Shown here: positions 275 to 47,650 of the stretch, in pieces
Position numbering within the stretch: position 1 is the first letter of the stretch
How the letters are laid out: the number at the start of each line of letters is the position of its first letter
Source: Xylographa opegraphella
Lineage: Eukaryota
DNA length: 64,000 nucleotides
Direction of reading: 5' to 3'
NCBI GenBank assembly: GCA_022813865.1
Contig: JALDZX010000060.1
Span: 1-64,000 of the forward strand
Notes under the pieces: generated by a model
Databases searched by the model: none
Told to the model about the DNA's origin: nothing
What the model saw: only the letters and a program-made list of their open reading frames with translations
Made by a program: the position numbers and the translations under genes

Positions 275-453
275 ATAACGAAATAAAATACGTATTTAAA
301 CTATTAAAATTATTAAAATTATATAATTAATCGTAATTAAAAATATATCGTGAATAACGTTTATAATAATAAAAAAATCGCTGTACACTCGGTAAAATAA
401 CGATAAAATTTTCAAATTACATAAAGTTAAATTTAAACGTATTTACCTTTGAT

Positions 454-828
454 TTATTGCAGCGTAACTGCTTTAAAAATAAAAGGTTGCAAATTCAGCT
501 TCGGGCGCTAATGAAGTAAAATAATCCGCTCCGATCAGTAGAATATTCCCTCTTTAGGTTTAGCTTCCTCCGGGCCTTGACTTTCCACAACTGCTGCATA
601 CTATTAGCTTCCTCTGGGCCTTGACTTTCCACAACGCTGCATATTGAGCAAGAGATCCAGCTAAGGCGGCCTCTCGCTTAGTATGCAGCAGTTGTGGAAA
701 GTCAAGGCCCGGAGGAAGCGAAACCTAAAGAGGGAATATTCTACTGATCGGAGCGGATTATTTTACTTCATTAGCGCCCAAAGCTGAAATTGCAACCCCT
801 CATTTTTAAAGCAGTTACGCTGCAATAA
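454..828. repeat. Long fold-back inverted repeat, MITE-like
   Basis: Arms 454-603 and 679-828 are near-perfect reverse complements. TA at both outer ends. Internal ~43-bp tandem duplication (560-600 / 604-644). Confidence 0.8.
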
Positions 829-831
829 GCT

Positions 832-877
832 AACCCGCAGGGGCTTAGCGCCCCACACGTCTGAGGTACTGAGGTAA
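832..877 (+). promoter_or_regulatory. 46-bp upstream element shared with 46592-46637
   Basis: AACCCGCAGGGGCTTAGCGCCCCACACGTCTGAGGTACTGAGGTAA, ~105 nt upstream of the SPC2 ATG. Partial second copy at 880-914. Function is inferred. Confidence 0.55.
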
Positions 878-982
878 AGGGATTTAGTGCGCCCCGTCTG
901 AGGGACTGAGGTAAAGTTTCGCACTTTCGACTACTTTGGCTCCTGCTCAAGGACGCTCAGTCCCCATATCACCTAAATTGTA

Positions 983-1672
983 ATGGCTTCTCCAATCGCA
1001 GTATACTCTCTGCCTGGTAAGTCTCCAAGCCCACGTTCTGCTCTGAAGAAGCTCAGCCGCCTATACCAGATCTTAAGAACACTACCGACGACGCACTTCC
1101 CAATTACCTTACTTCCCTGGACTTCGAACAAACACATTTTCTCACCGATATACGTTTAGTATTGGGCTACAGCGCAGTTATTATTGCCGCTGTTACGTTT
1201 GCCTTTGATTACCAGTGTGGCTGGGATGAGACCAAGGGATACACTTATTGGGCCGTCATCACGTATTTTCTGCTGAATGGCGCTTTAACATTTTGGATTT
1301 GGTTTGCGGAGAAAGGAAAGGTCTTTCAGGGATTGACACAGAACGGGACACTTGTATGCTGAACAGGACTCAGTGGTATCAAGCAGTGGTTGCTGACGAA
1401 GTCGGCAGCTCACAATCGCTTCTAGCGTGCCTAAGCACAATCCAACATACCAGATCGTGGTTCGGTGGACAGATCCCAAAACTTCGGAAGCTTTTGACTG
1501 GGAAACTCGCGAAATATCCGCACCATTCACTACCTGGTTTTCTCCCGACGGGCAATTTATTGCAAAGCCCTTTCAACAGTGGTTATCCTCGAAAATTCCA
1601 GTGATCGCAGCCGCAGATGGAGCTGGCTCAAATAAGAAGACTGAAAACAAACGCGCTCGGTCAGGGTTATAA
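983..1672 (+). CDS. SPC2: Signal peptidase complex subunit 2 (SPC25 family); exons 983-1016, 1070-1353, 1409-1672; 193 aa
   Basis: GT-AG introns join in frame: MASPIAVYSLPDLKNTTDDALPNYL...TDIRLVLGY...YFLLNGALTFWIWFAEKG...PFTTWFSPDGQFIAKPFQQWL. Two hydrophobic helices, typical of fungal Spc2. Confidence 0.92.
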
Positions 1673-3997: not shown

Positions 3998-4742
3998 GTT
4001 TTCTTGATCAAAAAAGCAAAAAAAAATAGTAAAAGTAAAGGTAAAAATCACGGAAAATCAAAGAATTAAAATTAAAATAAAAGCTCGATTTAACCGTTAC
4101 AGACTTTTAAAAAATATAAAATAAAAAATAAATATTAAACGTTTTCCCAACGATAATATAACGATTTACGCGATGACTATAAATATAATGAAAAATTAAA
4201 AAATTCGCCGCGTTCGCATAAATTTTACGTCAAAAGTTTTTTATATTAATATATAAAATTCGAATTATAGTAAAAATTAAAAATAAAAAAACTTTCGCGA
4301 AAAATTGTATAAAAGAAACAAAAAACTTTATTCGAGTGTAATTTTTTTTTAAATAATTTAATTTCAAAAAGTATTTAAAAGCAATAAGATCTTTTTATTA
4401 ATTATCGCAAAAATAATCAGCGAAACGATAATCAATTATATATTAAATTACGAATTACTAGCATTATATTAAAAACATAAATATAAATATTTTAAAAAAA
4501 TTATAAAATTATAATTGCTATAAATACGAATATATAAAAAAAGGTTATAAAATCTCTTTATTTTGCTATAAATATAAAGGTAATTACGAGGTAAAAAATA
4601 TACGAAAAAATATAAAAATATAAATATCATATAATATATGCAAATAATATTCATAAACTGTAAATAAACGCGTATTTAATATAATAGAAATTAATATTAT
4701 TTTTTATAATAAATTAATAACATTTTTATGCAATATTATATA

Positions 4743-7700
4743 TATCACGGACCGTTAAGTACTATAACAGAATAAGGCCCTAAAAGCAGCCCGAATAATA
4801 AAAAAACCTAGATACTCGCAGTTAATAATAATAATTATAGTATAAACATAAAGTACTAAAACGAATATTACTACTATTATTATAATAGCAGACTTATTAT
4901 ATAATTATAGCAGAAGTCCCGAAGACTCTGATCATATTTAATTTATATATCGAAGGCAATAGCTAATTTTAAATAAACAACCCTTTTTTTAATATTTTTA
5001 ATCGCTGCTACTATTTTACCCCCTATGTAAAGGAATTTTACCATTATATTTTAAACATTATTTTAGCAGAATACGCAGAACGGTTAAGGTAAAATATTCA
5101 TTTTAAAATACGTTAAACCTAAACGATCGCAAGTTCGACAAGTCAAAAAAAAGATTATTACGTTTAAAAAGCCCGACGACTGGTATAAAGAACGTATTAA
5201 ATTAAAAACGTTTCTTCTACAGATCGATGCGTATATATAAAACAATTAAAAACAGTTTTGAATAGAAAATAAAGTAAAATTCGCAGTAAAATTCGCAGTA
5301 AAATTCGCAGTAAAATTCTGTAAGTGCAAAATTTTTGTTTATATTTAACTATATTTATCTGACTTCCTCAACAAATAAAAAGCAGATCAGAAAACTACTA
5401 CAAAAAATCTTTGATGATTGAAACGAATTTCAAAAAAACGCATTTAAAAACGTAACCCTAAAAATTACTTTAAAAAGAATTATTCGTATTGGTCCAAAGG
5501 GGTTTTGCATCAAAATACGCCTTTAAGCTTTAAAGTATTATTATCAATATTAATTGAAACGAATCCGCCTAAACTGCGTAGTTTTATAAACAATTTAAAA
5601 ATAACATTAAAATAATATATTTAAGGGAAACAAACCAGAAATATTCAAAAAAAATCAAAAAAATCAAAGCTATAACAATCGACAATCGATATTATAAACG
5701 ACGTATAAAAAGAAAAATGGGCATCGTACGCTTATTATTTTAAATAAAAAACGAAAGAATTATAAATTCGATAATTTTTTTTATTATTTTTAAAATTCCA
5801 AGCTCGGTAGTGATAAATTTTGAAAGGAAATAAAATTAAATGCAATAACGAAACGCCCGAAATAGTGTCGAAAGAAATAAAAAATATATTAATAAAAGTT
5901 TAATTAAAGAAAAAAATACTATAATTACAATAGAAAAAAATAATTCGCTAAAAATTATCGTTAATAAAAGAAAACTACCGCTAACACTATTAAAAAAAAT
6001 AGAAAAAGAATACTTTACTTTAATAAAAGCTCGCAGCAATACTAATAAATTATAATAAGCTTTCGTGAACGGTATACTACGACGACAATTATACTGATTT
6101 ATTTAAACAATAAAAATAGTTCTTAATAATTCTTAATACCGTTAATAAAAAAGATAAACTGCAAGCAACAAGTAAAAAACTAAAATTAATATAATTTAAG
6201 AAATAATCAAAGTTAGCCAAAACGAAATTTAACGCTACGTCGCTAAAGTTATAGAACGAAATTTGTTTAAATCGAATAATTCAATTATCGACTTTTTACA
6301 GAAATTTACTACGTATATAATAAAAAAATCTTTACAATAAAAATCATTCAAAATACTCAATGTAAATTAAACAATACGGCAAGCAGGAAAAATCAAAGCC
6401 ATTAACGAATATATTGTAAATAGGCATTATCAAAACTTCGACGATATGATAATAAAAAACTTAAAATTTACTGACAATAAATAAAAAGAAAATTTGATTA
6501 ATAATAACGAAAATTTTAAACTAAAATTAATAATCGCAAGAAACTTATCTTGTAAAAAAAATATACGACTCGATATTAAACGTGCTTAAATTTTTTTAAA
6601 AAGCAGAGTTTTTTTAAAAGAAAATCAATGATTTTCGCGAAAGATTAATATCATAGAAAAAAAGGGAAAATAATAATTTTTTAACATATAATTTATTAAA
6701 AATACTATAATATTTTAAAAAATAAATTAAAATCAATAAAAATGCGGTTTAACTAGCTTACGACCTAGCTCGATATATTCAAATTAATATTAAAAACGAA
6801 TATTAAATATAAAAATATTATTAAGGAAAATATATTTATAAAATTTTATTTAGAATAAACGAAAAGTACCTAACCCCGAACGAAAAAAATACTTTTAAAG
6901 AATTTAAAAAAGTAACTTAAATATTTAACAAAAAATACGAGCGTTAGAGGTTTAAGCGATACGAAAGCAAAAAAGTTCACGCAAAAATTTTTAAATTTTT
7001 AAAATTTTTGGACCCCGCGTTAAAAAATTAGTAAGCCCTTTGATAAGGTCAACGAAGGCGTTTTATAATAAGCCTTCGAATAAATATAAAAGCACTTAAA
7101 TAATAAAGATTTATTATTTAAAGAATACCCTCATAGCAATAAATTATATAAAAACTCTTTAAGTAATAATTCGTATAGACCAGTACTGCGTAAAAATTTT
7201 AATAAACTTTATATCGCCGAATATCGCGAATAAAACTAGCGTCGATTTTTAAAAAAAGACATTTTTACTCAGTAGTAACGATAGGCGAAATTCTTTTAAA
7301 GTACAATCAGGAACAAATTAATTAAAATATCAAATATAGGAAAATTCGAATTGAATTATATATTATAGCTATATAATTTAATATTACTATAACAGAAGTT
7401 TATAATATGATATTAAAATTATTTTAATTTAAAAGAATGAACTTATAACTCAACTAGGCTAGGCAAATAATGTACTTTTTAAAAAAAAAAAATTTTGAGC
7501 GAAAATTTGTTAGAAAACGGAAAAAAATACGCGTTTTTATTCCATTAATTTAAAAAAAAATTCGAAAATATCCAGGACAAGCATAGATTTTATGAATTAA
7601 GTTTATTCAAAAAATTAGTACGTTATTTAACGAAAAAGTATCAAAAAGGCTTTTCCCGCATATTATCCGGAAAATTATACTATATTTATAAAAAAGGGGA

Positions 7701-10700
7701 TAGAGTTAAACAAGTTTTTAATTTATTTTTAATTAATAAAGAAGTTAAACGCACTACAAGGAGCATCTTAACGAAAATTTAAAAAATTTTTATTGAAAAT
7801 TCGCAGTCGTTAGTTAAATACCCTACTTTATTCGTATTAAAAAACGGCAAGTTTCGACTTTATATCGATTATCGAGAATTAAATAACATAATTATAAAAA
7901 ATAGTTACCCGTTATTTTTAATTTCGAAATTATAGAATCGACTTTAAAAAGCCATATAATTCACGAAATTTAATATATCAAAAGTATATAATCGAATTCG
8001 AATAAAGAAAGGTAGAAAATAAAAAACCGCTACAAAAACGCGCTTCGAACTTTATAAATGTACAATTATATCTTTCGGGTTGATTAACGCTTTAACCACC
8101 TTTTAAGCTTATATTAACAATATATTTTAAAAATATTTAAATGTATTCCTAATAGTATATTTAAATAATATACTAGTATATTTCACTGACGAAATCAAAT
8201 ATATAAAATACGTTAAATAAATACTGTATATTTGAAAAAATGTAAACTTACGTATTAAATCAGAAAAATACGAATTTTATAAATTAAAAAATCGAGTTTT
8301 TAAGTAATATCGTTTGAAATAAAGATTTAAAAATAAATCTATTCAAAATAAAATTAATTTTGAAATAATTTACATTTTACTTAATAAAAAATGTACAATT
8401 TTTTCTAGACCGGCGAACTTTTATCGAAAATTCGTAAAAAACTACTCTCGAATAATTTAGTACTTAATAAATATAATTAGAAACAAAGTATTATTTCAAT
8501 AGAACGCTTTTATGCAAAAAGCATTCAACAAACTAAAATATAAATTTAATACAAAATTAATACTAATCATATTTAATTCAGGCAAAGAAATTCTTATAAA
8601 AATAAACTTTTTAAATTTTGTCATGGGAGTATATTTAAATTAAAAAAAACGACAAAAATGTCACCCAATAGCGTTTTACTTTAAAAAGTTTAATACATTA
8701 AAGCAAAATTATAAAATTTAACATAAAAAACTACTAGCGATTGTCGAAAAATTTAAAGAATAAAAAATATACTGCGAAAATTTATATATTCTATTTAAAT
8801 ATATATTAACTAAAAAATTTAATATACTTTGCTACGACCAAAGTTTCTAATGAAAAACAGATTGAATAATTCGAAAAACTATTAAACTACAACTTCGAAA
8901 TCCACTATCAAAAAGAATTTAAAAATGCAAAAGCAAACGCTTTTAACAGACGATTTAACTATATAAAAGAACGACTAAAAACTAAATAGTCAGTTTTGCA
9001 AAATACAGACAAGAATACGTTAAAATATAATTATTTATTTATAATTACGATAATGATCCAGAACCACGATTTAAAAATAAAAATTAAATCAGCTTACGTT
9101 AAAAATAAGCAAGTATAAAGAATTCTTGAAGAAAAATAACAAAAATGTACTACCTTCAACAACGATTTAATACTGTTTTAAGGATCAGTATATATACTTA
9201 GCTGTATAATAAAAGAAGTTATTTAAGAATATTATAATAAACTAATAAATAACCATTTATGTATTAATAAAACAATTAAACCGATAATTCGAATTTACTA
9301 CTCTTTATACATAAAAAAAGTTAAAAGGTATATTAATAGATATAATTTGTGCCACAAAACGAAATCAGCAAAGTATTAATCATATAAATGATTTAAATCA
9401 TTAAAAATACCCTTAAAATTATAATCTTTGATAGCATTAGATTTTGTAGTTAAGTTATTATTATCGAAAGAATTTATATAAAAATTTAATATAATTCTAT
9501 TCTAACGATTGTAAATAAATTTACCAAAGAAGTTCGTTTTATTTTATATATAAAAAACTCGAACACAAAGAATTTAATATATATCTTTTTAAAATATACA
9601 GTCTTTATATAGTTACTGCTGAATAAAATCATATTTAATAAAAATAAACTATTTACATCGAAGTTTTGGCAAATATTAACTAAAGAATCAAAAATAAATT
9701 ATAAACTATCAATTAAATATCACCCGCAGATAAATAAACAAATAAAAAATATAATAGTCGAATAATATTTCTATACATATATAAATTATCGATAAAATGA
9801 CTAAATTATATTACTATTAATAGTATAATTAATATACAACAATAATACTAACGAAATTACTAAATAAACGCTATTTTACGTCAATCGTAAATATTATATA
9901 AAATTGTTTCAAGACTCGAGGCCTATAGAAAAAATTAACAAGTTAATAAATATATTAATTAAAGAATTTCGACGACTATATATCGACTTGAAAAAAAACA
10001 TTAGATTCCTAAAGTTTAAATTAATATTCTACGTAAACCAATATAAATCTAGGGGCCCTATATTTAAAAGGGGAATTAAAGTTTATCTACTTTAAAAAAC
10101 ATCGAAATAACAAAATCAAGCAGAAATGAAATTATATTAGAATTAAATTTTTTAGAATCATTCGCAACATTAAGAATATAAATTTTGAGCTTAAATTATT
10201 GAAAAAAATATACTTAATATTTTATAAATTACAACTAAACGTAGTATCGCCAGAAATTTCAAAGTTGATATAAGTATCGAACAACTAACTATTTAATAAA
10301 ATAAAAGCAGAAATAAAAAGTAAAGAAATTTTTTAAATAACAGTTAAAATTTCGACGATAATATATATAAGTATTTTATTAAATAAAAGAAATATTTAAA
10401 TAACGAGAATACTTGGGAATTAGTAGTTAACCTTAACAATTATAAAATACTTATTGAACAGTACCATCAGAAAGTACGAACTTCAGGGGAAAAAGGCAAT
10501 AAAAGTAAAAACCCGAAATCGACGTTATTAAAATTAGATACGAGACTTCCTAGAAAAAATAGCCCCCGATGTCGATAAAAAAGTTTTTTTTTCTTTTTTG
10601 TTACCTTTTATTTTTTTTAAGGTTTAAACAACTATTTTCGCCTTACGCTTTATTAAATATTATTTTATATTATTATTCGACGACGTTTTAACAAGGCAGC

Positions 10701-11300
10701 CTTTATTTGTTTTTTCGCCGTTGTTAATTTAACGTTCAAACGACTTCGTTTTTTTTATCAACCTTTGCGAAATTGAAATTAAAAAATATTTTTATATCGT
10801 AAAAACGACCACGCTTAAGGCAGATAAAATACGATTTAAAATAATCGAAAATTACGCAATTTAATTACGCCTTTTAACAGGTTACGTATTTAAACGCCAC
10901 ATAAATACCTCAGTATTTTATTTTATAATAATTATTTTTAACGTAAAAGCGATAGAAAAAAAATACTTTTTTTAAAAATAAAAACCTCAAAGGGGGGAGT
11001 TAATATTACGAACCGCCAAGTATTATAATAAAGTAAAATTTTAAGGGTAACCCGGATAATAAAAAAGCCTAAATCGAGCAGTTAATAATAATAATTGTAA
11101 TATAAGCATAAGGTATTAAAACGACTATTATTATTATATAATTATAACAAAAGTCCCGGGGACTCTGGCTATATTTCATTCATATATCGAAGGCAATAAC
11201 TAATTTTAAATAAACAACCCCCTTTTACCTCCACCTTTTTTAAACATCTTTGATCGTTGCCATTATTCTGCCCTCTGTTTAAAGGAATTTCACCATTACA
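4743..11300 (+). mobile_element. RIP-inactivated Ty3/Gypsy chromovirus (element 1)
   Basis: LTRs 4743-5048 and 11004-11300. TSD ATATA/ATATG. PPT AAGGGGGGAG at ~10990. RT motif VYLNNILVY (RIPped YLDD) at ~8155. Integrase YHPQ at ~9718. Chromodomain relic IK*KKY..NENTWE at ~10380. Confidence 0.9.
10560..10960 (-). pseudogene. RIPped antisense ORF in Gypsy element 1: Zn2Cys6-like cluster plus coiled-coil-like tail
   Basis: 10888-10799 reads YVTC*KA*LNCVIFDYFKSYFICLKRGRFY. The Tyr codons at positions 1, 20 and 30 are one G>A change from Cys. ORF ends are approximate. Confidence 0.6.
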
Positions 11301-11449
11301 ATATGAACGTATAACGCAAGTCGATTTAGCAATATTGAATAATTAAAGTTTTATATTTAGCGAAATAATTGAAAGTATAAACTTTATAAATTAATAATAA
11401 TAAAAAACGTTAAATAAATTCAAAAAATTCGACTTTGAAATTACGGCGA

Positions 11450-12750
11450 AATTATTTAAAACAAAACGTAATTCGCTTTAATTAGTAACAAAAAGAATTT
11501 AAGCAATTTATATTTTTAATGTTATTAATAAAAACGACCAACTGATAAACTTTTAATAAATATTAAATTTTATGAATATTATAATACAACACGAAAAAAC
11601 CATTAAACGTAATTGAAATATTATTATTGAACAATTTATTATTTAAAGATATAAAAATATATTAATAATATAAAAATCAGAACACAGCCCCGCCGTTATA
11701 AAATCGTATAACGCAAATATTCACAAATTTTATTTTATTAATAATTTAAACCTCTTATTATAAATATATATTTATATAAGTAAATAAAAATAATAATATA
11801 TAAAACGCAAACGCGGCGGAAAAAAACCATTATAATATTGTAATTACTATTTAAACTAGCGCTAAACTAAAAAACACGATATATTTATATAATATTTATA
11901 GTTCGTTTTTTATTAATAAACTTATAAAAAGACTTTTTTTAATTCTGCTTAAATTAAATATTAAATTATAGTAACAAAATATATTGTAATAAAAAAATTC
12001 ATTTATATATACTATTCGTGTTAAAACAAAAGGAATTATTTAAATATTTATAATACGTTCGCTTAATTTATGAATTCGAAATAGCCGATAAAATTAACAA
12101 GGTCGATATTTTAGAATATATAAAATAATTACATTAAATCTTAAAATATTTTCAAAATAATTTAATAAAGCAGAGAAAAAATTTACATTAAAATAAAAAT
12201 ATATATATAAATAATTTATTAATAGTAATTTTTATCGCGATCGCGAAAATTTATATATTACAAAAGAAAATACGTATTAATAGTTATATTGTAATTATAA
12301 TATAATTTGTAATTAATAATTAAAAATAATAGTAACCCGGTCTCAGAAACAAAAAAATAATAAAAATAATAATTTAAAATTTCTAGCGAAATTTAAATAA
12401 AATACTATAAAGGTAAACAATAAATATTTACTCACGAAAGAGATTTTAGCGATTTAAACTTATAAAGAAATTTTTTATAAATCTTTATTAGCGTAAATAA
12501 GCTTTTGCATAATTTAAAATATAATAAAATTTCTAATTATTTATTATTCGATTATTTTATCGAAAGTTGCGCTATTTAAATAAAAGAAATCACAAAAATT
12601 ATAAAAAAAATTTAAAATACCTTTTATGTATTATAAGTATTTATAGCAGTTTTTATAATAATTTATTAAAAGTTGCCGTATTTAAAATCTGAAATTTATA
12701 AAAAATAATCGCTTTACAATTTTTGTTCGGCAGTTAAAATAACACTATAA
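11450..12750 (+). pseudogene. Possible RIPped DUF6589-like transposon protein relic
   Basis: Degenerate motifs in the expected order: FINNLNL (~DNIN), KINKVDI (~INEA), NNLLI (~GDLLT). Heavily degraded and tentative. Confidence 0.25.
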
Positions 12751-15580: not shown

Positions 15581-15873
15581 ATAAACGATTCAATATTTAT
15601 TACTAAATTTTACTCGATACATTTTGCGGCTTAAATTTATAATTATTATTTTTATCAAGTTTTTACTAACGCGAGGTAATTTTACTATTGTTATAAAAAA
15701 ATTTATTTTCAAAAGTTTTAATATTATTTTTATAAAAATAGTTAAAATTAAAGGGATGATATGAAATCTTTAATAATAAAGTTTTTAATAATAATAAAAA
15801 AACGAAGGCGGAAAAAAACGGAAAATCAGGTTTATAAAATTAAATGATATTGAAAAATGAGCGCCTGACTAAA

Positions 15874-16205
15874 TGTTACGATCCTGCCTCTCACTAGTAT
15901 AGTTCGATTAGGGATCTGGGTTGGATTCGTCAATGAGTNNNNNNNNNNTCACGATGCAGTCTTAATGCTCCAGTCTAATAGTCTTCGTACAGTATTGTAT
16001 TGAAGCCTAGTAGCCTAAGATCATAACGTGAGTTGAACACGCCCTTCTACAACATAGGAAAACCTCCACTCTATATAGAAGTCCTGTTCTGCGATACCTC
16101 CTATGCCTACCCTGCCTCTGTAGCCGGGGCCGCAGAGGCAATGGAGGCATCGGACTATAGTTCTTCCAATCCTTGTTTCACACAGTATCGGCTAGAACCT
16201 TATCA
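15874..16205 (-). mobile_element. Solo LTR, family C, inside the family D LTR
   Basis: TGTTAC...TTATCA termini, TSD CTAAA. Reverse complement resembles LTR 19604-19966. Confidence 0.88.
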
Positions 16206-17264
16206 CTAAAGAATTTATAATCGCGTAGTAATATAAAAAAACTAAATTTTAACTATAAACAAAAGGTTTAATTATATAGTAACTCGCTAGAATATTTAAA
16301 TAAAGTAAAAAAAAAGTTTAAATTAAGTTAAAGGTTAAAATTTAAAGTTTATAATAAATCCCTTTAATTATAAAAAATCTAATATTTACGCTTAATAAAA
16401 TTTATATATTAATATAAATACGTTTAAATTTTTTTAATCGACCTTTTTTTTCCGCTGGTAATAACACGTTAGTATTATTTTTTTCTATCGATTTTAATAA
16501 TTTTCGACCGGGCATATTAAATATATATTTTTTATCGTTTTATTATAATCGTTAATGAACTTTCGTGCGTGGTTTAAATCTTTTTTCTTATTATTTATTA
16601 TATTATATTCCATACTTTTTCTATTTAATTAAATTTTCTACCATAAGTTTTCTACGAAGTACCTTTTCCCGTTTATTTAATAATTGATTTAATTTAAAGG
16701 AATTATTTTCATAATTATTAATATATACCACCGCAAGTTAATTAAAAATAATTTTATAATAAAAATCGAGCTTTAAATCTAGCGTAAAATCAAGCAATAC
16801 GATCGTAAAAATTAAATAAATTTTTTAATCTATTAAAAATTCGAATTAATATATTAATTATTTTGCTTTTTTAAATTTTTTTAAAAAGGTTTTGAATATT
16901 AAGGGAAAAGTTTTCTACTAAAAAATAATAAAAATATTGTATTTTTTATATAAATAAATTATCGCGAAATTGTCGACTAATACAAAAATCGCGGTATATT
17001 TCCTATCGTAATATTTCTTTGTCGATATATTCGCAAAAGTCATTACTCTTTGACCTTTATTTTATATCGCTAAAAATAATAGGCTATTTCTTTTTCGTCA
17101 AAATTTATTAAAAAATTCGCTAAATTTAATATTTTAAATCCTTCGTTTAGACGTATTTCTTGCGTAATTTCGTTAACGATTTTTATTATAATCGAATTTA
17201 TAAAATTATTGAACGTTATTTATAAAAATAATAAAAGATTCAATTAATTCTTAAATAATTTTAA

Positions 17265-17521: not shown

Positions 17522-20500
17522 TTAATTTCGCGATCATATATCGCAGGGTTATTTTAATAAGTTAATTAATTTTTTAAACTAACCGTTAATTTAAAAGTAA
17601 TATATAGTAAAGTATAGCGATTTTACTTTTGGAATTTAAAAACCCTTTTTTTAAGTTTCGGTAAAAACTTTCGATCCCTATTTGATAATATAATATTCAG
17701 AATAAATTATTTAATAATTTAAAAATATACAAAAAACTTTTTAATTTAATTCTTTGCCGTATAAATACTTTTCCCTAATATTATATCAATTTTTTACTAA
17801 ATTTCTATATTATAATAAAGCAGTAATCGTATTTCTATTATAATTTTAATAAAGCGAGGATAAAATCTATTATTATAAAATAATAAAAAATATTAAGCAT
17901 TAAAATTAGCTAAAGATTTCTTTAAAATTTATGCCGCTTAATTTAATTTTTAAAATGTTATTAATAAAATTTAATATACGCTTTAAAACAATATTCAAGC
18001 TGGTAAATATATAAAAAAATCGTAGTTATTTTATAAATATAATAATATTCAGTATAATCGTATACATCGTACGTTATATTTTATATAATACGTTTTTTAT
18101 TGAATCGTACGAAATATACAGTTTTTTCGATTATTTTTATAATTTAATAAATAAAAATACTTATTATTTTTTTATATAGTAAAGATATCGCGTACGTATT
18201 CAAAATATCGTTTTTATAATTTTTTTCAAAGATTTTATGCTAATGAGTATCGCTTTCGTATTTAACAATGAATTTAATTTCAAAATTAAATAACATTTTT
18301 ATTATAATTGTTTAATAATTATATAAATAATTAAATTTATTATAAAAATTATTATAGTCGTTGCGCGTATTGTCGCTATTTAATTTAAAAATAACGTTTA
18401 ACATAATATAAAATCAATCGGGCTTGTACTTAATAATAAATTTAAATTTTTGAAAATATTTTAAAGCTTTGATAAATCGTAGATTAAATTTTTTAATCTT
18501 TATAATTAACAGGTTAATTTAAATTACGATAACAGTAATTATAAAATAATTAATACATATTATTGCGATTGATTTTCTTACGACTTTTAATATATATTAA
18601 ATTTTTTTAATAATCCAGATTAAATATGCTATATTTATTTTAATAATCCAGATTAAATATGCTATATTTATTTTGATAAATTAATATCTTTTTTTATATT
18701 GATTAAGGCTTTGCTAAAAAAATATAATATATTGAATATTAAAATATTTTAATATAAAAATAGATTTATAATCTTAGCGTTCATTATTTAAAAAAATATT
18801 TTAACATCGAATAAAATAATAAACGTGTTTTTATATTCGTTAATATTTTTAATATAACAAATATAAAGTTTTATTTCGCGTTTTTAAAACGTATCGATAT
18901 CGTAGAAAAGCCATCGTAATAAATTAAAATACGCCAAAATAAACAAATTATTAAAAACGTTTTTAAATTTTTAAAAAAATTCAGTTCAACTAAGGTTAAA
19001 TTATTTATAAATAAATTTATTGCCGGTTTTCGTTATACATTATTAACGTTATATTTTACGAAATTTTGATTAAATATTTTTCTGCGTTTTTTTTAAAAAC
19101 GATATTAAATAAATATACCTCGCGACGTAATTACAAAAATCTTTAATTATTTTTAAATATATTTCAAGTTTATATTATAGAAATATTTAAAAAAAATTAT
19201 TTTAAAATTATTTTCTATCATTATGAAATCGAAGATATTAATCTTTTAGCGTGATAAATTTACATTTAAATAATTTAAAAAAGATTTATTTAGGGCTAAA
19301 TATATATTATATTTAAATAAATACGAAGAAACTGCGTATAAATAAAATAATATTTTTTAACATATTTAAATAAATTACTGCGCTATTAATATACATTTTA
19401 CAGTAAATCTTATATTCTTTATAATATCGTTGATTTTTTCATATATAAACAAAGCTATTACAGTAATTTATTAATATAATGTTAAATATTTTTTGTTCTG
19501 ATAAGACACGACTGAGAGGCGATTTTAATAAAAATTATAAATTTATTATTACTAAAGAAATTAATTATAGTTTATTATCGATACATATATTGCTTTGCGT
19601 ATTTAATAAGGTTTTAACCAATGTTGTGTGAAACAAGGGTCGGAGGAACCTTATTCCGGCTGCCTCCTCTGCCTCTGTAGAAGGCATAGAAGGAGTGACC
19701 CCTGAAACCTCGATGGCCTCCTCGGGAGGTATAGAAGGCATTTTAAAACAGGACTTTTATATAAAGCGAAGGATTTCCTTACTGTAAAAGGCGTATTCAA
19801 TTCATGTTATAATCTTAGAATAGTAAGCTTCAATATAAATCTCTTATACGAAAACTATTATTCTTAAAGAATTATTAAACTGTTACTATGCCTTCCTATT
19901 TATTTATTAACGAATTCAACCAAGATCCTTAGTCGAAATATATTAATAAGAAGCAGAATCGTATCACTTTAAACATTTTTAAAATAAGTGTATCAGGAGC
20001 ATAATCAAACTTTCCCCCAAGTATTATAAAAAATAATAAAAAAATACCACAGAAGAAAATAATCGCGTCAAGGTAAAAAGACCTAATAAGTATAAAGAAA
20101 ATAGGGATCATTTAAAAAATTAGCTTATATAAATGGATTTATTCTTTGAGTTCCAAGGAAATAGTATCCCAGAGTTAAAAAAATCACTTTTCGCTATCAC
20201 GTACATGCGAGGACAAGCTTAGAAATAAATTATCTTTTATTTTAAGAAATATTTCGAAAACCCTAACAACGAAGACTTTAGGTGGTTAAAAAAACTTTAC
20301 AACGTTTAAGGTCGAAATTCGAAAAGTTTTCAGATCATTAAACAAGAAAAACACGGCAATACGAATCATACAGCATTTTAGACAAAAGAGATTTTGTGTA
20401 AAATACTCAAGTCGATTTCAGCAGTTTGCGATACAGACTGAATAAAACGATAATACTTTGATTGTAATATACCGTAAGGGACTTAAAGATTCGGTAAAAA

Positions 20501-23257
20501 ATAAATTAATAAGGACTGGTGCTGCAATCAAGACTATGGATCAGATAATCGAAATATGCATAAAAATTTACGACAAGCTATAAAAAAAAGCCATAGAACG
20601 CAGACACGAAATCGAAGGCACAACAAGAATTAAATCCTAGAAAAACGGCTTTCAAGCAAAGAAAAAATCGTACAAAACGTCGAATTCTTATGGACTGATG
20701 CCAATAGAGGTAAATGTATTTTAAAAGCAAAAGCAGAGTTTTAAGAAACAGCACTTACGGGGTAAAAAACCAGGGATTACCTGTTACGTATGTAAAAAGA
20801 TCGGCTATATTGCGAAGAACTGTCGGTCGAAAAACAAAATGCCTAGACCATAAATAAACGTACATTTAAAATTTTCGATCAAAACGAAATTTAGAAAAAA
20901 AGACCATCAGCTGTCTTTATGCAAGAAAGAGAATACAGAACTCATCTTAATTTCAAGCAATCAGGCCAGTACAAGCAGAAACAACGAAAAGGTTGATACC
21001 CAGAAAGACATTACTTTATATCAAGAAGACAGTCTTTGGGTAGAAATCAACAACAACGAAGAAAGCAACTCAAATATTAGCAGCCTACAAATCGGGGGGG
21101 ACCCCAAGGAACAAAATATCGAGTTAGACAATCCCGACAACTAGACCTATAAAGAAACTGACGAGCCAAAAAAGTCGAAGAATACAGTAAATAATCACTG
21201 GGATTATCGAGTAGATCCAGAACATCCACGTTACGAAATAATATATTATAGTGCTTATACAAGCATTTACTACAGAGTTTATTAAAAAGATCATAAATAC
21301 AACGGCCGCATAGATAAAGTCTGTTATAAAACTTAAATTTGGGATAAATGCTTTAAAAACGAATGCCCATGGCATTTAAGAGAAATACGAAGGCATTTAT
21401 CCTTTCCGGAATATATACAAGAATTCTGCAATAACTTAATTATATACGGAACCCGTCCAGAGAAAAATAACTACGGAAACTCGTTATAACAATGGTATTT
21501 CCATGGATGATGTATAATATACATAGAAGTCAAAGAAATTTACGGCTATCTCGAACAGGGAAAAAAATAATCCCATATATTATGAAAAAATATATAAAGA
21601 TTAATATAATATACCCCAAAACACACTGGAAGGAGCCAGACTGTGTAAATTTTATAAAGATTTCGATTATTATAAACAGTTATTGAACAACCGTATTATT
21701 AAATATTAGAATTAATTTAAATTATATATTCAGCACTTTCGCGAAGAGCTGTGACTTCGAATCATTAGTTTTGGAATAGATTCAAATAATAATGGCCGAC
21801 GGGTTATCAAGAAAAAAAAAGAGCGACACACAAGATCATTTCCTGTCGCTATTTATTAATATCATGAAAAAATAATCTTTAGTATAATTATCATGGCCAG
21901 GTACTATATCATTCTAGGCTTATTTTAGTAAATCAAGCATAATATATTCCTAAACTGGGACAGAGAAGTACTTATCAAGAAGCATATTAATCGCGTTATT
22001 AATATATATTCTATACATCGACAAAGAACGATAATAAATAAATAAAAAAACCGAAAACCGGTCGAGATTATAGATATTTTATTTTTAAATAAAAACGATT
22101 TTACTCTAGGGTTCGGCTTGATACGCACTAGTATAGATTAGTAAAACAAAATAAATCAGAGTTTGAAAAGAAGTAACGCATCTTTTGACATCCCTAAAGA
22201 GTATAAAGCATGGACATGACTTTTTCAGGAAAAGGAAGGACTTAATGCTCTACCTAAGCACCAACCTTAGAACTGTGAGATTAACGATATGTTAAAAAAA
22301 GGACTTTAGGAGCTTTGCAAGTACATCGAAGAAAGTCTAAAAAAGGGATTTATACGCGAATCAAAATTCTTAGCAGAATATTCAGTAATATTTATATTTA
22401 AGAAAGACGGAAGCTTGAAACCTTGCATCGATTATCGAAAATGAAACGATATTATTATTAAAAATCGATATTCGCTACCGAAAATTAGCGAGATACGGAA
22501 TAAACTCGATAAAGCCAAAATTTTTATCAAGCTCGACCTTAAGGGCGTATACAATTTAATCAGGATAGAAAAAGGTAAGAAATAAAAGACTGCATTTCGA
22601 AGCAAATATGGGTATTATAAGTACCAAGTTATGCCTTTTAGGTTAATCAACGTATTTATTATTTATTAAACGTTAATCAACAACCTATTAAAGGCGTACT
22701 TGGATTCAATAATGATAATCTATTTGGACGATATACTTATTTACTCAGAATTAGCAGAGGAACATATAAAATATATACAGAAAATACTTACTTATTTAGG
22801 AAAAGCAGGACTACTTTTTAAATCAGAAAAATATAAATTCAGTAAAAACAAGGTAGTCTTTCTAGGATTCGTATTTAATAAAAAAAATCAAAATAAACCC
22901 AGGAAAGATAAAGACCATACTCGAATAGCCTTAACCAATAATAGTAAAAAAAATTTAAAATTCCTAGGATTTGCAAACTTTAATAGAACTTTCATTAAAA
23001 ATTACTTTAAAAAGGCGATATCTTTAACAAACCTGATACATAAGGATGTAAGCTTCAAATGGGATTCGAATCAACAACGAGCCTTTAATATTTAAAAAAA
23101 AATTCTATACAACCACCAGTTTTAATAATATTCCAGGTAGAAAAACCTGCAAGAATGGAGATAAATGTATTAAATTTAGCCATAAAGGCATGTTTATTGC
23201 AGATGCAAAATAGGAAATAACACCCTATTATATATTATTCAAAAAAATGTTACAAGC

Positions 23258-23506
23258 TGTAACGGCGTGTTACATGGCACCTTAACAAGTGATAGACGGA
23301 ACGGGACTAAAGCGCGTCCGGGACTNNNNNNNNNNNNNNNNNNNNNNNNNNNNNNNNNNNNNNNNNNNNNNNNNNNNNNNNNNNNNNNNNNNNNNNNNNN
23401 NNNNNNNNNNNNNNNNNNNNNNNNNNNNTATTATTCTAGGTTGAAATCGCTCACCTATAGCTGAGGTTCTAGGCCTGCTTTTCTGGTGAGATAGCGAGCC
23501 GTAACA
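23258..23506 (+). mobile_element. Solo LTR, family A, inside the RNase H region of element 2
   Basis: TG...CA termini, TSD CAAGC, spans an N gap. Confidence 0.9.
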
Positions 23507-25105
23507 CAAGCAGAACAAAATTATAATATTTACAATAAGGAATTACTTGCTATGTTAATATAGATTTAAAACTGAAAAGTATATATAGAAAGTTGTTCAG
23601 AACTGATTATATATATAAATTATAAGAATTTATTAAGCTTTACCACGATAAAAGTACTTAACAGAAAGTAAATACGATAAGCAGAACTATTAGAATAATA
23701 TAAATTCAAAATCATATATATATCAGGTAAAAATAATGGAAAAGCAGAAACACTCAGCAGAAGAAAAAACCTTATAAACAAGGAATTAATAAATAAAGCC
23801 CTATTACGAAAGAATAGCAACGGAGCTTTTATTCTAACAAAACAAATTGTAGCTTTCGAAATAAAAGGAATTACAAAAGATTTGACAGAATCGTCAGCAG
23901 AAAAAATAATCAAATATTATCACGATAAGACAATTAATAGTTATTTAAAAATTATTAAAACGATAGAATTTATAAAAAGAAACTATGAATTCCCGAACAT
24001 GAAAAAACATATAGAAAAGTATATCAAAAAGTGTATACCATGCCAAAAGAATAAATCAACAAGAAACGTAGTATATAAAAACATTTAGTTTTAAAAGGTA
24101 TTAAACAGACCATAGAAATAGATCTTGATCGACTTTATTACCAAATTGCTAAAATTAGAGTATTCAATAACGGGATAAAAGTACGACTTAATAATAATAC
24201 TTATAAATAAACTTACGAAATACTTTATTATTATTTTTTAAAGAAACGTTTACAGTAGAATAGTTGATATTCCTTTTGTTAAACAGATTGATAAGAGATT
24301 ATGGTTTTTTAGCTAAAATTATTTCCGATAGGGACAAATTGTTTACATTCAACTTTAAAAGACTCCAATGTCTAAACTAGGAATTAAATTAAGAATGTCA
24401 ACAGTTTATTACCTACAGACAGATAAACAAATTAAAAAAATAAATCAAAACTTGAAAGTATACCTACGGCGCTTTATAAATTCAAAACAGAATAATTAGG
24501 TATTATTATTGCTTTTAGAACAACTGGCATTAAATAATAAACAATCTGCGATTACAGGACTATCGCCTTTCTTCGCGAATTCAGGGCGTCATTCTTAATT
24601 ATTTAAAGACAAGAGACCAGAACCTAATGCAAACAAAGCAATAATATTAGCCAAAGATTTAAAGACTACGCATAAGGCGTTATTCAAGAAAATCGAACAA
24701 AGTAACGACAAATTCGCTGCAACAAGATATAAAGATATCAAGAATGGACCTTAACTAAAGAAGAGGGATAAAGTTTACCTTCTTACGAAGAACTTGATAA
24801 TCAGCAAGAAACGAAGCAAGAAACTTAATTATACTAAAGTCGGACCATCCTTAATTAAGCAAGTCAAAAGACCATTTAATTACCTTCTCAACCTGCCAAA
24901 AGATGCGAAAATATACTCAGTATTTTATATGTCCTTATTAGAACCTGCGGACGCCAGTACTCCAGTATAAATAACCTTTTAATATAAAAAAAAAGAAGAA
25001 CAGGAATTCGAAGTGAAAAAATCTTGGACAAGCAAGGTCAGAGATATTTGGTTAAATAAAAAAGTTACCCAGAATCGAACAATACTTGGGAACCACTTAC
25101 TAGCC

Positions 25106-25612
25106 TTAGGAATTGCCAGGAACTTCTTTAACAATATTACCAAGCAGAGCAAGAATCTTAGAAGAGGAAACTTCCAAAGCCTCAGAAAAAAAAAAGGGAG
25201 GAGAGAGGGCCCCGTAGGAACCGCTGGTAAGGGCTTTCGCCTCTCGTCGTTTATTATCTTCCAGGGCCTCAATGTTGAACATTTCGCGTTGGAACATTTC
25301 CCGTTTCTCGTCCTTAATATTCAAAAGCCGACGTTCCTCTCGACCTAAAGCCTTTCTTAACTTAACCACGCAACGTTTTATTTTACTCTTCCATTTCTTT
25401 AAATCTCGACGGTCGGCATCAATAATAATTAGAAAATATTAAGCTTTAACTGCTACGCAGTTCGCGCAGAATTCTGACTTTAAAGAAATCGTATAGAGAA
25501 AACATTCTTTAATACAACGATCATAAGGGTGCATTGTGAATTTTCCTTTATTATAAATACTATGCGACTGAACCTTTCGATGATAAGCGCTGGTTAATTT
25601 GTATTTTAATAT
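25106..25612 (-). pseudogene. Antisense ORF of Gypsy element 2 (~168 codons, one RIP-type stop): Zn2Cys6-like cluster plus coiled-coil-like tail
   Basis: Single frame ...MHPYDRCIKECFLYTISLKSEFCANCVAVKA*YFL...DADRRDLKKWKSKIKRCVVKLRKALGREERRLL, continuous with ORF 25106-25369. Confidence 0.7.
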
Positions 25613-28600
25613 AATACAGAGAAGCTACTGGAATTCTTTCGAAGCAAGAATCTGGCGGGGGAAGCTAGTAATAAGGTTTTAAACAATATTGTGTGAAACA
25701 AGGGTCGAAGGAATCTTATTCCAGCTGCCTTTTCTGCCTTTATAAAAGGCATAAAAGGAGTGACCCCTAAAGCCTTGATGGCCTTCTCGGGAGGCATAGA
25801 AAGTATTTTAAAATAGGATTTCTATATAAAGTAAAGGATTTCCTTACTATAAAAGGCGTATTCAACTTATATTATAATCTTAGAATAGTAAGCTTTAATA
25901 TAAACCTTTTGTACGAAAACTATTACTTTTAAAGAATTATTAAACTGTTACTGTGCCTTCCTATTCATTCATTAACGAATTCAACCCAGATCCTTAATCG
26001 AACTATATTAATGAGAAGCAGAATCGTAACAGTATTATAGTAATAATCTTTATTTATAAAAGAATAAAATATAAATTCGAAACTAAATTTTTACTTAAAA
26101 ATTGTATATTAGCTACGACACGATTTTTTAATTTTTTTTTAACTTTTTTCTGAATTACGAAATATAAATAATTAAATAGTATAGTATTTAAAAATTAATT
26201 CATTTTATTTTAAACATAAAATTTATTAAATTATTTATTAACAATTTCGCGGTTTTTAGGGGCGAATAAATATATTTTAAAAATTGATTTATAAATTAAT
26301 AATCAATTGTTGATTAATAACATCTTTTTTTATTTTGCTTTTAAAATATTTATTACATTATTATTATTTATCTATAACCGGGGGAAATTATTTATTATTT
26401 CGACAATTTTTACTATAGTGATTAATTTTTATTATATATAATAACTTTATGTAAAAGTATTCGTTTTATCTCTTCGACGATATATTATATCAAAAAATAT
26501 TTAAAATTATAATTAAAATTAAAATATATATATTTTTTATTATTTTTAAAATATACCGCCATATTTGCTTCGTTTAAAAATATTAAAAAATATTTATTAA
26601 TATTATATTTTACAAGATTGCTACGGTTAATTTTCTATAATATTATTATAAATTAAAACATATTATTTATTATATAAATATAAAAAAATTACGTTTACTA
26701 CGTATATATAAAAGTTTTTATATGTTAATTCGAAAAGAAAATTACGATCGAGGGGAAATTGTTTAATATATTAAACTACGATAGGTGTTTTAATATAAAA
26801 TAAAAATATAACGTTTTTTAAAATAAAAATACTTTTTTGAATTTTTTGTTAATACGTAGCGTAATAACTATATTAATAATTATATTTTTATAATTATTAA
26901 TAATTACTCTGTTTTAGCGAGGATAAAAATTAAGATTTTTAGGCAAAAAATTTACTTCGATAAAAATTTTTACTTTAAAATTCTCTATAAATCACGTTTT
27001 TTAAACGATATAAAGTATCGCCAGCGTATCGTTTGCGAAAATACTAAAAAAATAAATATTTAAATTAATATATTTACTAATTCGATATTGATCAACATTA
27101 ATTCTTTAAACGATAAATAACGAAATAATTTTTTAACATATTCGCCTTTTAATTTTATTCGAGTAAAAAATCTTAATTAACTAAAATTATCGTATAGTTT
27201 ACATCGAAACATATTTAAACAAAAAATATATTTAATGAAAGGTTTATTTAAATTATAATATAATATAATTTTCGAAAGCTTAAATCACCCGTTTGTAATT
27301 AAACGACGTTTAATTTTAACATATAGAAATAATTACGATAAATTGTCGATTGCTATAAACTCTGATCTGGCTATTTTTAAAAAAAAAATAATATATATTT
27401 AATTTTTTTTTGAAATGAACGAAAAGGTTATACTAAAATTTGAAGATTGTATGATACGTATTGTGTTAATATTCAAATATTACGAAGTATACTATAAGTT
27501 TACTATTTTTAAGAGGGGTTTAAGATTATTTAAATAAATATCGTAACTTTAATTTTATATATTATACATTTATTCGTTTTGCGCGTTATAATAACTTTAA
27601 TTATAATAAATTTTATAGTAACTTTAATCATAATAAACTTGAACTTATTTATTGTTAAATTTCTTTTTAATATTAATAGCAGTAAATTTTATATTTTTAA
27701 TATTTTTAATATTTTTAACGTTTTTAACGTTTTTATTATAATAAATTATTAATCATCACTTCGAGTGCTAATAGTTATTTTAATAGTCGTTTTAATTTCT
27801 TAAAAATCCTTTCAAATATTTCGGCGCTTTTTCGACCGCGTTGTTCGTATTTTAAATTTTAAATTAATTATTTCACGTATTTTTTTTAAATAAATAACAA
27901 CAATTGCCTTGATTGTTGAACTACCTTGAAAAAGCGTTAAAATAAAAAACGGCTAAAATAATCTTGAAAGAAAATTTAAATTTTTTATAAAGAGATAAGT
28001 TTACAAAAATTGTAAATTTTTTTTAGATTTTTTGAAATATTCTAAAAACCATCTCTCAAAAAATTCAAAAAGCCTTGATTTTAATTATTTTTAAAGCTAA
28101 ATTTAAATTAAATTTAATTATTTAATTACGAATAATTAAACGATTTATCTTTATTAAATTAATTTTTTTATTTCGATTTTAGAGTTTTAAGAGATATTTA
28201 TATAAAAATAATAATATTTAGCTTATTTAATAACTTTTTTAAAAAATACATTAATATATATTCGGGTTTAAATTACGAATTTAAATTTATTTTCGCTTTA
28301 ATTATATTCTTTTATAACAATAATAAATATATCAATATATTTTACGCGGTTACGGCTATTTCGTAAATTTTTCATAATATAACGCGTATTAACATATTTA
28401 TTAAAAAGTTTCGCTCGAAATCGTTCGAAAACGTCGTTTAAATATTTTACAAAATTCTTTAATGCTATTTAAATAAGCTATTAAATTAAGTTTTATAATT
28501 TTATTATTTTGAATGTTTTATTATAATTCGGCCTCCCCACGGAAATACGTATTTAAATTTTATCGTATTTTTATTATATTTTTAGTATTTACTGCGATAC

Positions 28601-31600: not shown

Positions 31601-31937
31601 ATTTAAAGTCGAAAATTCAAAAATATTATTAAATAAATTCTAAAATTTAAGAATAAAGTATAATGACGTTTAAAAATATTAGATAAAAATAAATTAAATA
31701 TTTAATAAATTAACCTAAGCTATTCTGTATACATATATATATAATAAATCGGCGAAACTCGATTTTTAACTATTTATTAAACTTGTATAATTGATAATTA
31801 TTTTTTATATTTATAAAAACCGCCGAAAAAACTAACTTTAAAAATATAATTATGAAAAAATATGCGAAAATTAATAAATCTGATTTTTAATAAGTTAAAA
31901 AAATATTATAATAAGTTAATTTTTTTAATTTTTTTTA

Positions 31938-32137
31938 TGTTGGATATAGCGTTACCTGGCAGAATGCCCTCTATGTTGCCTGCAGGCAACATAGACGCTA
32001 ACCTGCTTCTAGACTAGCGTGGCCGTATATAAGGGAGCTTTCTTCCTTAAGAAGAAAGCAACCTTCTTACGCATCTTGACAGGTAGTTCAATGAAGCACT
32101 GGTTCCACCATACTGATTCCACCCATTCATTTCAACT
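31938..32137 (+). mobile_element. Nearly un-RIPped Copia 5' LTR with PBS stub
   Basis: TGTTGG...TTCAACT followed by GGTTAT. Homologous to the LTRs at 32799 and 37938. Confidence 0.85.
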
Positions 32138-32798
32138 GGTTATATAATTGAATTATTTTATTTATTTTAAACTTTAAAAATTTTCAGCGTGGCAGTATAC
32201 CTTTACGTAATATCAAAAATTATTATTTATTTTAATAAAAAAGCTGAATACTGGCCGAAAGGTACACGAAGCGTAAATAAAAAATATAATCACAATAATT
32301 AAATAATAATAACGAAACGAAATAAAATATAAACTTTTTATTTTTTCTATACAAATATAATAATAATCGTAGTATATATAAAATACGCGTTAAACGCTGT
32401 TTTTATATAGAAATGTATAATTTATTGATATTTTTAAGCTTTAAAACGGCTTTTTTAATAAACAAGTCAAATAAAAATAAAATTTTACTATATATAAATT
32501 TCTTTAAATTATAGTGATTTTATAGTAGTTCAATTTAATATTAATATTTATTTCAACATTAATGAAAGGCTTTGTCAATAAAAGTCTTTTGAATATATAA
32601 AACATTAAAAGAAATATACGCTACGTTTTATAAAAATAACGCGTAATATTCTCGTAGTATCTGCCGCTAGGGTAAAATATAAATATTTATTCATCAATAT
32701 TAAATATATATATAATTGTTAACAAGGAGAGTATCGCTCTAAAAAATTGATCATATATATAATAATTAAATATTATAAATAACAGTAAAACTAAATAC

Positions 32799-42100: not shown

Positions 42101-42239
42101 ATTGCGTATATGTAAAAACAGGCTTAAAAGTAAATAATATTTTATTTTAAAAACACTTTCAAAATTGAAATAACGCGGTTATAAAAATAATTTCAAAAAC
42201 TTATAATATTTAAAATTAAAATAAAGATTTTTTAAATTA

Positions 42240-46380: not shown

Positions 46381-46591
46381 ATTAACGAGCGAACGGCTTT
46401 AATTATTGCAATATATATTAAAATATTAAAATAAATTACAAATTTAAATAAATGACGTACGAGATTTTTCTATTAAACGAGTAAAATAACGATAAATTTT
46501 TTAAATTAAGCGAAGTTGAACTTAAAACGTGTTTGCTTTTAACTTTTTAGTTAGAAATTCGCTAACCCGAACAGTCTTAGCGATGGACGCG

Positions 46592-46637
46592 AACCCGCAG
46601 AGGCTTAGCGCCCCTCACGTCTGGCGTACTGAGGCAA
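46592..46637 (+). promoter_or_regulatory. 46-bp upstream element shared with 832-877
   Basis: AACCCGCAGAGGCTTAGCGCCCCTCACGTCTGGCGTACTGAGGCAA, ~195 nt upstream of the PXMP4-like ATG. Partial copy at 46561-46582. Confidence 0.55.
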
Positions 46638-46832
46638 GAAATCAACTCATTTCGAGTTGTTATACCTATTTAATGTACTTCGTACTGTATTACCAAGCCA
46701 TAGCCCATCCCCATTTCACCGACATTCGCTGTGACTCTTCCTTATTAACGCTCCGTAACCCTTCGAAGATTTACATGATGAGCTAGTGACGTGCGTCGAC
46801 CGTCCTGCTTTCATTCCGCAAGGAAGATCAGC

Positions 46833-47650
46833 ATGGATACTCTGAATGTTCGTCCTTCACTTTCCTGCACAACAGTGCTCTGATTCAGGTATAGATGGCC
46901 ATTAACGATTTCATACTCAAGCCGCAATATACTGAGTATCTTGCGCTCATCAAAGCTGCACGTAATGGTGCGGTCTACGGTGCCAAAGTTCGCTTTCCGC
47001 ATGCTCTTGTGTAAGATTTGCTATCTCGGGGTAGGCAAGAAGCTTGTGTACTTATACCTTTGGTGCACACAGCATGGTATTTCTCTTTCGATCGGGCTCG
47101 TAGGTTTCGTCCTTCTCCTCCATAATCAAACCTTTCGCGTTATGCATTTTGTTGACTTCTTTTGGGCCATAGTCTGAAGGAGAAGCTTAGGATTATCTTC
47201 AAAGCGACTCGGACGCATGCGCACAATCTTGCAACATTTGCTGTCATTTACAAAACTACCGTCTTAATTCTCCGCCGTGCTTCGCGGTCTGGGGAAGAAG
47301 CATCGTACCACACTTTCCTAGCGGGTCTCCTGGGTGGCTATATTGTCTTTGGTCGCAACTCTCAATCAAGCGTCAACCAGCAGATCGTCACCTATGTCTT
47401 TGCGCGCGTCATACTTGCATTGGCAAGGATGTTTGTGCAGAAAGGTGGTATACTGCCGCTGCAGCTTCGAGAACAACTAGCTGGAAATGCATGGCCAACG
47501 TTCGCGGCGGTGAGCTGGGGAGCGGTGATGTGGCTCTTCCGGTGGTATCCAGAGACAATACAACCAAGTATGAGGAGTAGTATGCAGTATATATATACCA
47601 ATGCAGATCATTGGGGCGGGTTTCGGGATTTCCTTATACACAACAAATAG
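46833..47650 (+). CDS. Peroxisomal membrane protein 4 (PXMP4/PMP24, Tim17/Tim22/Tim23 family); exons 46833-46847, 46895-47010, 47073-47099, 47173-47650; 211 aa
   Basis: Spliced protein has RNGAVYGAKVRFPHALVMVFLFRSGS, THAHNLATF, SSVNQQI and SSMQYIY, characteristic of fungal PXMP4. Exon phases are consistent. Confidence 0.92.

Follow-up and report, generated by a model that had tools for sequence, protein, structure and literature searches.

A 46-bp sequence shared 5' of SPC2 and PXMP4 in Xylographa opegraphella: a candidate relic of a short dispersed repeat with a gene-side end spared by RIP

Introduction

Short repeats lying close to the 5' ends of genes have been described in several filamentous fungi whose genomes are exposed to repeat-induced point mutation (RIP), a fungal defence. 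In Epichloe festucae, the EFT families of degenerate MITEs and other short repeats have a length of 81-524 bp, share 49-90% pairwise identity and include many deleted copies, are weakly affected by RIP owing to their size, and are located within 500 bp 5' of ORFs in 357 of 1,077 cases, which amounts to a moderate enrichment (PMC3227409, PMC6218096). In Fusarium oxysporum, the miniature impala elements (mimp) are always present in the promoters of the SIX effector genes, and deletion pointed to no direct role in expression (PMC3599309). RIP is furthermore described to leak from repeats into the adjacent DNA and to fade with distance (PMC2973834), and the control of heterochromatin spreading in Neurospora is attributed to the JmjC domain protein DMM-1 (PMC9023284).

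Here, a 64-kb stretch of ascomycete nuclear DNA, called the window throughout, was analysed with respect to a 46-bp sequence that occurs 5' of two unrelated genes. A prior reading, based on the nucleotide sequence only, had presented this 46-mer as an element in its own right, either a composite housekeeping promoter with fixed spacing, or a boundary that shields isolated genes from heterochromatin, or a domesticated short repeat. The SPC2-side locus is designated copy 1 and the PXMP4-side locus copy 2.

Results

Setting of the two loci in RIP-affected DNA

The window contains three gene islands (approximately 458-1886, 46541-51755 and 62144-64000) with a GC content of 0.47-0.57, surrounded by a sea of DNA with 16-25% GC. 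The RIP index, calculated as (CpA+TpG)/(ApC+GpT), is 0.67 in the AT-rich sea (26001-45000) and 1.2-1.3 in the genes. Stop-riddled Ty3/Gypsy relics are carried by this AT-rich DNA: when read through the stops, positions 20001-26001 give matches to gag, RT, RNase H, integrase and chromodomain, and positions 4003-12000 give matches to RNase H. Fragments of LTRs of the same Gypsy family were noticed at 87-283 and 15997-16213. A GC-rich stretch of about 150 bp was also noticed in AT-rich DNA in three copies (46233-46385, 17528-17375 and 59219-59148; 84-94%), and seems to have escaped RIP despite lying in a longer repeat (45956-46385/17792-17375).

The identities of the two genes located 3' of the copies, proposed earlier as SPC2 and PXMP4, are confirmed by matches to PF06703 and PF02466 (Table 1), with the start codons at 984 and 46895 and the first intron of SPC2 read off the sequence. 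SPC2 constitutes a lone island of 1.4 kb amid AT-rich DNA. The leader of PXMP4 contains an upstream ORF of 16 codons (46833-46883), 12 bp before the ATG. A long gene on the - strand of the same island (48188-50861) exhibits a Cys/His spacing that by eye resembles C2H2 zinc fingers, and the four ORF pieces of it that were searched gave no Pfam match at E up to 0.01. In the promoter of this gene, which is turned towards the AT block near 51755, no copy of the 46-mer is present.

Table 1. Features of the window that bear on the shared sequence (positions within the 64-kb window)
Feature	Position	Strand	Evidence or remark
AT-rich block, copy 1, GC 0.16	392..458	+	77.9% to 46481-46548
Foldback of 375 bp splitting the repeat, copy 1 only	454..828	.	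arms, GC, RIP index
GC-rich core, copy 1 (46-mer plus 3 bases)	829..877	+	41/46 ungapped; 5 CpA/TpG sites intact
Tandem partial copy, 3' two-thirds of core	880..916	+	858-879/895-916 95%, alignment
Weak extra collinear match, copy 1, just 5' of SPC2 ATG	961..980	+	16/19
SPC2/SPC25 gene, 3' of copy 1	984..1672	+	PF06703 E 1e-37, 1.3e-13
AT-rich block, copy 2, GC 0.22	46481..46548	+	BLAST, RIP-tolerant score, contig matches
Spacer with partial tandem copy of core 5' part (AACCCG..CTTAGCG)	46558..46588	+	alignment
GC-rich core, copy 2	46589..46637	+	BLAST match; 5 CpA/TpG sites intact
Weak extra collinear match, copy 2	46708..46727	+	alignment to copy 1 counterpart
PXMP4/Pmp24-type gene (Tim17 family), 3' of copy 2	46895..47650	+	PF02466 E 6.4e-12
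RIPped Ty3/Gypsy relic	19604-26031		LTR pair 19604-19966/25669-26031, 88.7% over 363 bp
MITE family A, full copies	2265-2495, 23258-23506, 41918-42100	+	termini TGTAACGGC..GCCGTAACA
MITE family A, full copy	55298-55050	-	termini TGTAACGGC..GCCGTAACA
MITE family A, 3' end	1-85
N runs	2331-2333, 15939-15948, 23326-23428, 42022-42037, 55144-55230, 57492-57613, 59067-59147, 60009-60029, 61987-62036

The core match between copy 1 and copy 2

The claimed ungapped match of 41 out of 46 positions between 832-877 and 46592-46637, in the same orientation to the downstream gene, was reproduced, and both copies are found on the + strand, in sense and 5' of + strand genes. The five differences (copy 1/copy 2: G/A at 841, A/T at 855, A/G at 864, G/C at 865 and T/C at 875) comprise three transitions (841, 864, 875) and two transversions (855, 865), which is the same count of transversions as given before. 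BLAST widens the match to 829-877/46589-46637 (87.8% of 49 positions, E 9e-12). In a shuffle control over the rest of the window (n = 100), the top ungapped score had a mean of 23 and a maximum of 26/46; since the shuffles never exceeded this value, the match is beyond chance and represents real homology.

A RIP-tolerant scan in purine/pyrimidine code, covering both strands of the whole window, revealed no core copy beyond these two, and the runner-up sites, with 36/46 in that code and 14-18 exact matches, are noise. No RIPped copy of the 46-mer was thus found in the AT-rich DNA, which makes up approximately 55 kb of the window. Further copies could be hidden in masked N bases (493 in total), the runs of which lie mostly in or adjoining copies of MITE family A (Table 1). 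Pattern scans of metagenomes with core patterns of 30 and 22 letters gave 0 matches each, and a 12-letter piece of the core, used as a literature string, matched no paper. A coding reading of the core was dropped because the frame left open in copy 2 is interrupted by a stop in copy 1. Possible motif resemblances to Reb1/Tbf1, CreA, STRE, FarA (CCTCGG) and the Neurospora mitochondrial PstI palindromes carry no weight as evidence.

The shared unit extends beyond the core

The element cannot be regarded as 46 bp long, as had been assumed, since homology goes further, to an AT-rich block in each copy (392-458 and 46481-46548; 77.9% over 68 bp by BLAST). This pair of blocks attains a RIP-tolerant local score of 85.5, with the next-best score in the window at 50.5 and the median at 33.5, and its 67 aligned positions contain nine transitions and five transversions. 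The RIP index of the block is 0.43 in copy 1 and 0.38 in copy 2. Block and core are collinear, with order and orientation unchanged between the loci, and are separated by 40 bp in copy 2 and by the 375-bp foldback in copy 1; the shared unit accordingly covers approximately 160-250 bp in copy 2 and extends from 392 to about 916 in copy 1. Extension of the homology into 278-391 was rejected as unspecific, other AT-rich places scoring equally or better, and a BLAST extension to 16354 was discarded as low-complexity AT. The DNA upstream of copy 1 contains a MITE 3' end (1-85) and a piece of the Gypsy LTR in reverse orientation (87-283), and upstream of copy 2 a different repeat is located (45956-46385), which matches 17792-17375. 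Given this divergence of the loci farther upstream, the shared unit is short and independent and does not constitute part of a larger common element.

Adjoining partial copies of the core had been placed at 880-914 and 46561-46582, and alignment confirmed them as real. In copy 1, 858-879 and 895-916 are 95% alike and 880-916 aligns with 841-879 with small indels, and in copy 2, 46561-46579 aligns with 46592-46610 at about 15 of 19 positions. The duplicated part of the core differs between the loci, comprising the 3' two-thirds in copy 1 and the 5' part in copy 2. The twin CTGAGG that had been listed as a module holds for copy 1; in copy 2, CTGGCG is followed by a CTGAGG. A third, weak collinear match (961-980 with 46708-46727) reaches 16/19, a score equalled by 1% of 500 shuffles, and may suggest, as a hint only, further shared homology.

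A foldback splits copy 1

The arms of the foldback in copy 1 (454-603 and 679-828) are 150 nt long and 96% complementary. Because its GC content is 0.45 and its RIP index 1.70, the foldback is not RIPped. At the outer end of the left arm, three G-to-A changes in relation to the right arm are present (481, 483 and 484), which fits with RIP tapering off where the AT block ends. A tandem unit of 44 bp is contained within the foldback (560-643), and no second copy of the foldback occurs in the window. Kinship of foldback and core was considered on account of a common 9-mer and rejected, as 20-26% of shuffles score as well. The foldback is situated directly 5' of the SPC2 promoter, and its ends fit a TA target duplication, which is ambiguous owing to the palindrome. 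Either a foldback element that is mobile or an inverted duplication of local origin could account for it.

Further loci carrying the AT-rich block

Contigs of the likely source sequencing run were aligned on 46400-47300 at 80% likeness. Two contig records stem from other loci: record 3 spans 46427-46499 and record 4 spans 46480-46527, with nine mismatches each. Their unaligned ends carry the homology onward and their flanks differ from copy 1. The homology begins at the same place, at approximately 46480-46481, in copy 1 and in record 4, and the latter runs on like copy 2 without the foldback. Thus, the AT-rich block belongs to a dispersed repeat family with at least four loci, and the foldback, missing from copy 2 and from record 4, is peculiar to copy 1. 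Pieces of 21 and 24 bp from a further record (record 2), which may be chance matches of AT-rich DNA, were left out of this locus count. The core itself is known at two loci, records 3 and 4 covering the AT-rich block. Over the core, only the source contig aligned. Copy 1 served as a positive control, with 88% likeness over 49 bp and 13 bases in its longest exact run, and since it was missed as well, no firm copy number of the core follows from the contigs of the source run. Of two other runs of the same study, each from another organism, one (X2), from a relative, gave one coding piece (46952-47004) and one piece of 37 bp, and in the other (X3) nothing aligned on 46400-47300 at 80% likeness.

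Presence of a second collinear block and its recurrence on further contigs argue for likeness by common repeat descent, instead of independent promoter sites for the same factor, and lend support to the short repeat that the sequence-only reading had listed as its alternative. The same data bear on whether a single event of segmental duplication or of gene conversion, affecting the two upstream regions and involving neither a mobile element nor a function, could explain the match. Such an event would be in line with only two known copies of the core, with terminal repeats and target-site duplications not having been found, and with a homology that is interrupted and contains many indels, as in DNA duplicated long ago. 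It is nevertheless improbable, since the AT-rich block is found on other contigs with different flanks, so that this part at least is dispersed.

What class of repeat the unit could represent

MITE family A provides an internal comparison within the window. Its members measure 183-249 bp, are not RIPped, and show perfect 5-bp duplications (ATATC, CAAGC, ATTGC and AATAC) in four out of four full copies. One copy was noticed to be nested in the Gypsy relic, the interior of several copies reads N, and a variant whose end is similar is located at approximately 15860-15996. The 46-mer unit resembles this family in being short, un-RIPped and repeated in or adjoining AT-rich blocks; however, MITE family A has defined termini and perfect 5-bp duplications, and neither was found in the 46-mer unit. 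In the unit, terminal inverted repeats are missing: no inverted copy of the core exists on either strand of the window, and the left end of the unit (GTAAAATAACG) and its right end (..ACTGAGGTAAAG) are uncomplementary. Direct repeats at the edges of homology (CGAGT at 46478 and 46653 in copy 2; TCGG/TCGA in copy 1) are within chance, as about two exact 5-mer matches are expected, and no convincing target-site duplication was found at the unit edges. Lacking the clarity of MITE family A, the unit is old, degenerate or not a classical transposon.

Other classes did not fit better. For a SINE-type element, a tRNA-like head was sought with ARAGORN, which reported 0 genes, and no Pol III boxes are common to both copies; a B-box-like site with one mismatch to the box consensus occurs in copy 2 alone, with about 0.2 such sites estimated to be expected by chance. 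A solo LTR was rejected: the ends can be read as RIPped TG and CA, yet are without a duplication, and the unit is unlike the Gypsy LTR pair of Table 1. Rfam gave 0 matches for the whole window at the gathering threshold, and at E up to 10 sub-threshold miRNA-hairpin models fell on the foldback and none on the core. Finally, no fold better than that of shuffles was obtained (z-scores 0.26, -0.81, -0.38 and -0.41).

Conservation and spacing in relation to a regulatory role

The core differs between the copies at 5 of 46 positions and the AT-rich block at 14 of 67 (Fisher p = 0.20), and transversions account for 2 of 46 versus 5 of 67 positions (p = 0.70); the core is thus not demonstrably the better conserved of the two. 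Between the end of the core and the start codon lie 107 bp in SPC2 (68 bp if counted from the duplicate) and 258 bp in PXMP4. The proposed composite promoter with fixed spacing finds no support in these unequal distances, in tandem duplications that differ between the loci or in the p value of 0.20 for conservation, and the data constitute mild evidence against a fixed architecture.

A less rigid version holds that the core is an exapted cis-regulatory module, derived from a repeat, selected in the promoters of SPC2 and PXMP4 and binding one or more transcription factors. It predicts that both known core copies lie in sense 5' of genes, which is what is seen and which counts against a repeat relic; both are moreover within about 300-310 bp of the start codon. 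The core is the best-matching block (89% versus 78% for the AT-rich block), all five CpA/TpG targets of RIP in each copy are intact beside RIPped DNA, and sub-parts of the core are tandemly duplicated at both loci, as in arrays of binding sites. Enrichment of Epichloe MITE families just upstream of transcription start sites, reported in PMC6218096, agrees with such a use. Against it stand the unequal spacing to the start codons, duplicated sub-parts that are not the same at the two loci, the twin CTGAGG missing in copy 2, an excess of conservation that is insignificant, and the outcome of the mimp deletion (PMC3599309). In addition, there are two copies only, and the chance that both would lie in sense and 5' of a gene is approximately 0.07, if survival is limited to un-RIPped non-coding DNA (about 3.3 kb); because of the number of copies, the positional association is weak. 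Taken together, an exapted module appears doubtful.

Position at the edges of gene islands

To our knowledge, filamentous fungi have no described DNA motif that marks RIP blocks on their euchromatin side, and none of such a sort is known for DMM-1. Such a role was weighed for the core, as a boundary or insulator that would keep heterochromatin (H3K9me3, DNA methylation) or RIP of the AT-rich block from reaching the genes isolated there. Position is what speaks for it: copy 2 lies about 40 bp past the end of AT-rich DNA, copy 1 is placed between the transition and the gene, and SPC2 is marooned in its island. The contention that both copies lie close to where RIPped DNA ends holds for copy 2; it does not for copy 1, where the shift in composition occurs at about 458-485, 375 bp before the core, with the un-RIPped foldback in between. 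The 46-mer is found at the 5' edge of only two islands, and the other island edges (approximately 1886, 51755 and 62040) are without a core copy on either strand, even in the purine/pyrimidine scan. The B-box-like site is confined to copy 2, and spreading in Neurospora is controlled by a JmjC protein, DMM-1 (PMC9023284). The boundary is very improbable. A repeat-recruited 'keep open' signal, by which the core would drive transcription and at the same time restrain RIP-associated heterochromatin at isolated housekeeping genes, is likewise very improbable.

Discussion

The reading that we favour, at a probability of roughly 0.55, is that the two loci carry relics of a short, non-autonomous dispersed repeat whose gene-side end escaped RIP. 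The 46-mer would then be the best-preserved, RIP-free stretch of a dispersed repeat of small size and old age, which most likely derives from a small non-autonomous mobile element. Two of its copies would have landed, or survived, directly 5' of unrelated genes, and in copy 1 the repeat would have been interrupted by insertion of the foldback. At this size the unit was probably too short to trigger RIP alone; instead, the long retrotransposon relics on the far side may have been the source of leaking RIP that eroded the distal AT-rich block, as the gradient in composition suggests. At the same time, the GC-rich end facing the gene would have kept its CpA/TpG sites, five in each core copy, possibly aided by selection on the promoter.

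A relic of this kind resembles the Epichloe short repeats and the mimps in position and history, and appears to differ from both in the features by which MITEs are recognised, terminal inverted repeats being missing and no convincing target-site duplication having been found. The Epichloe genome is likewise shaped by RIP into AT-rich and gene-rich blocks, and the unit is likened to its repeat families by description, with the core known in two copies; however, the Epichloe families have terminal inverted repeats and target-site duplications, neither of which was found in the unit (PMC3227409, PMC6218096). Mimps share with the unit the recurrence of a short repeat 5' of unrelated genes in repeat-rich DNA, as a positional association, whereas they are described as clear MITEs of the Tc1/mariner type with inverted termini and about 100 copies (PMC3599309), and the unit is without inverted termini. 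The associated genes also differ, being effectors in the case of mimps (PMC3599309) and housekeeping membrane proteins in the case of the 46-mer. Leakage of RIP was studied at effector genes (PMC2973834), and the gradient proposed here is drawn from composition and from two copies.

If the repeat relic is the true explanation, the finding is an ordinary one, as ascomycete genomes moulded by RIP are well known to contain short relics near the 5' ends of genes. It would provide an example of RIP eroding one side of a short repeat and sparing the other, and would matter beyond that only if the core turned out to have been reused as a module for regulation or against silencing.
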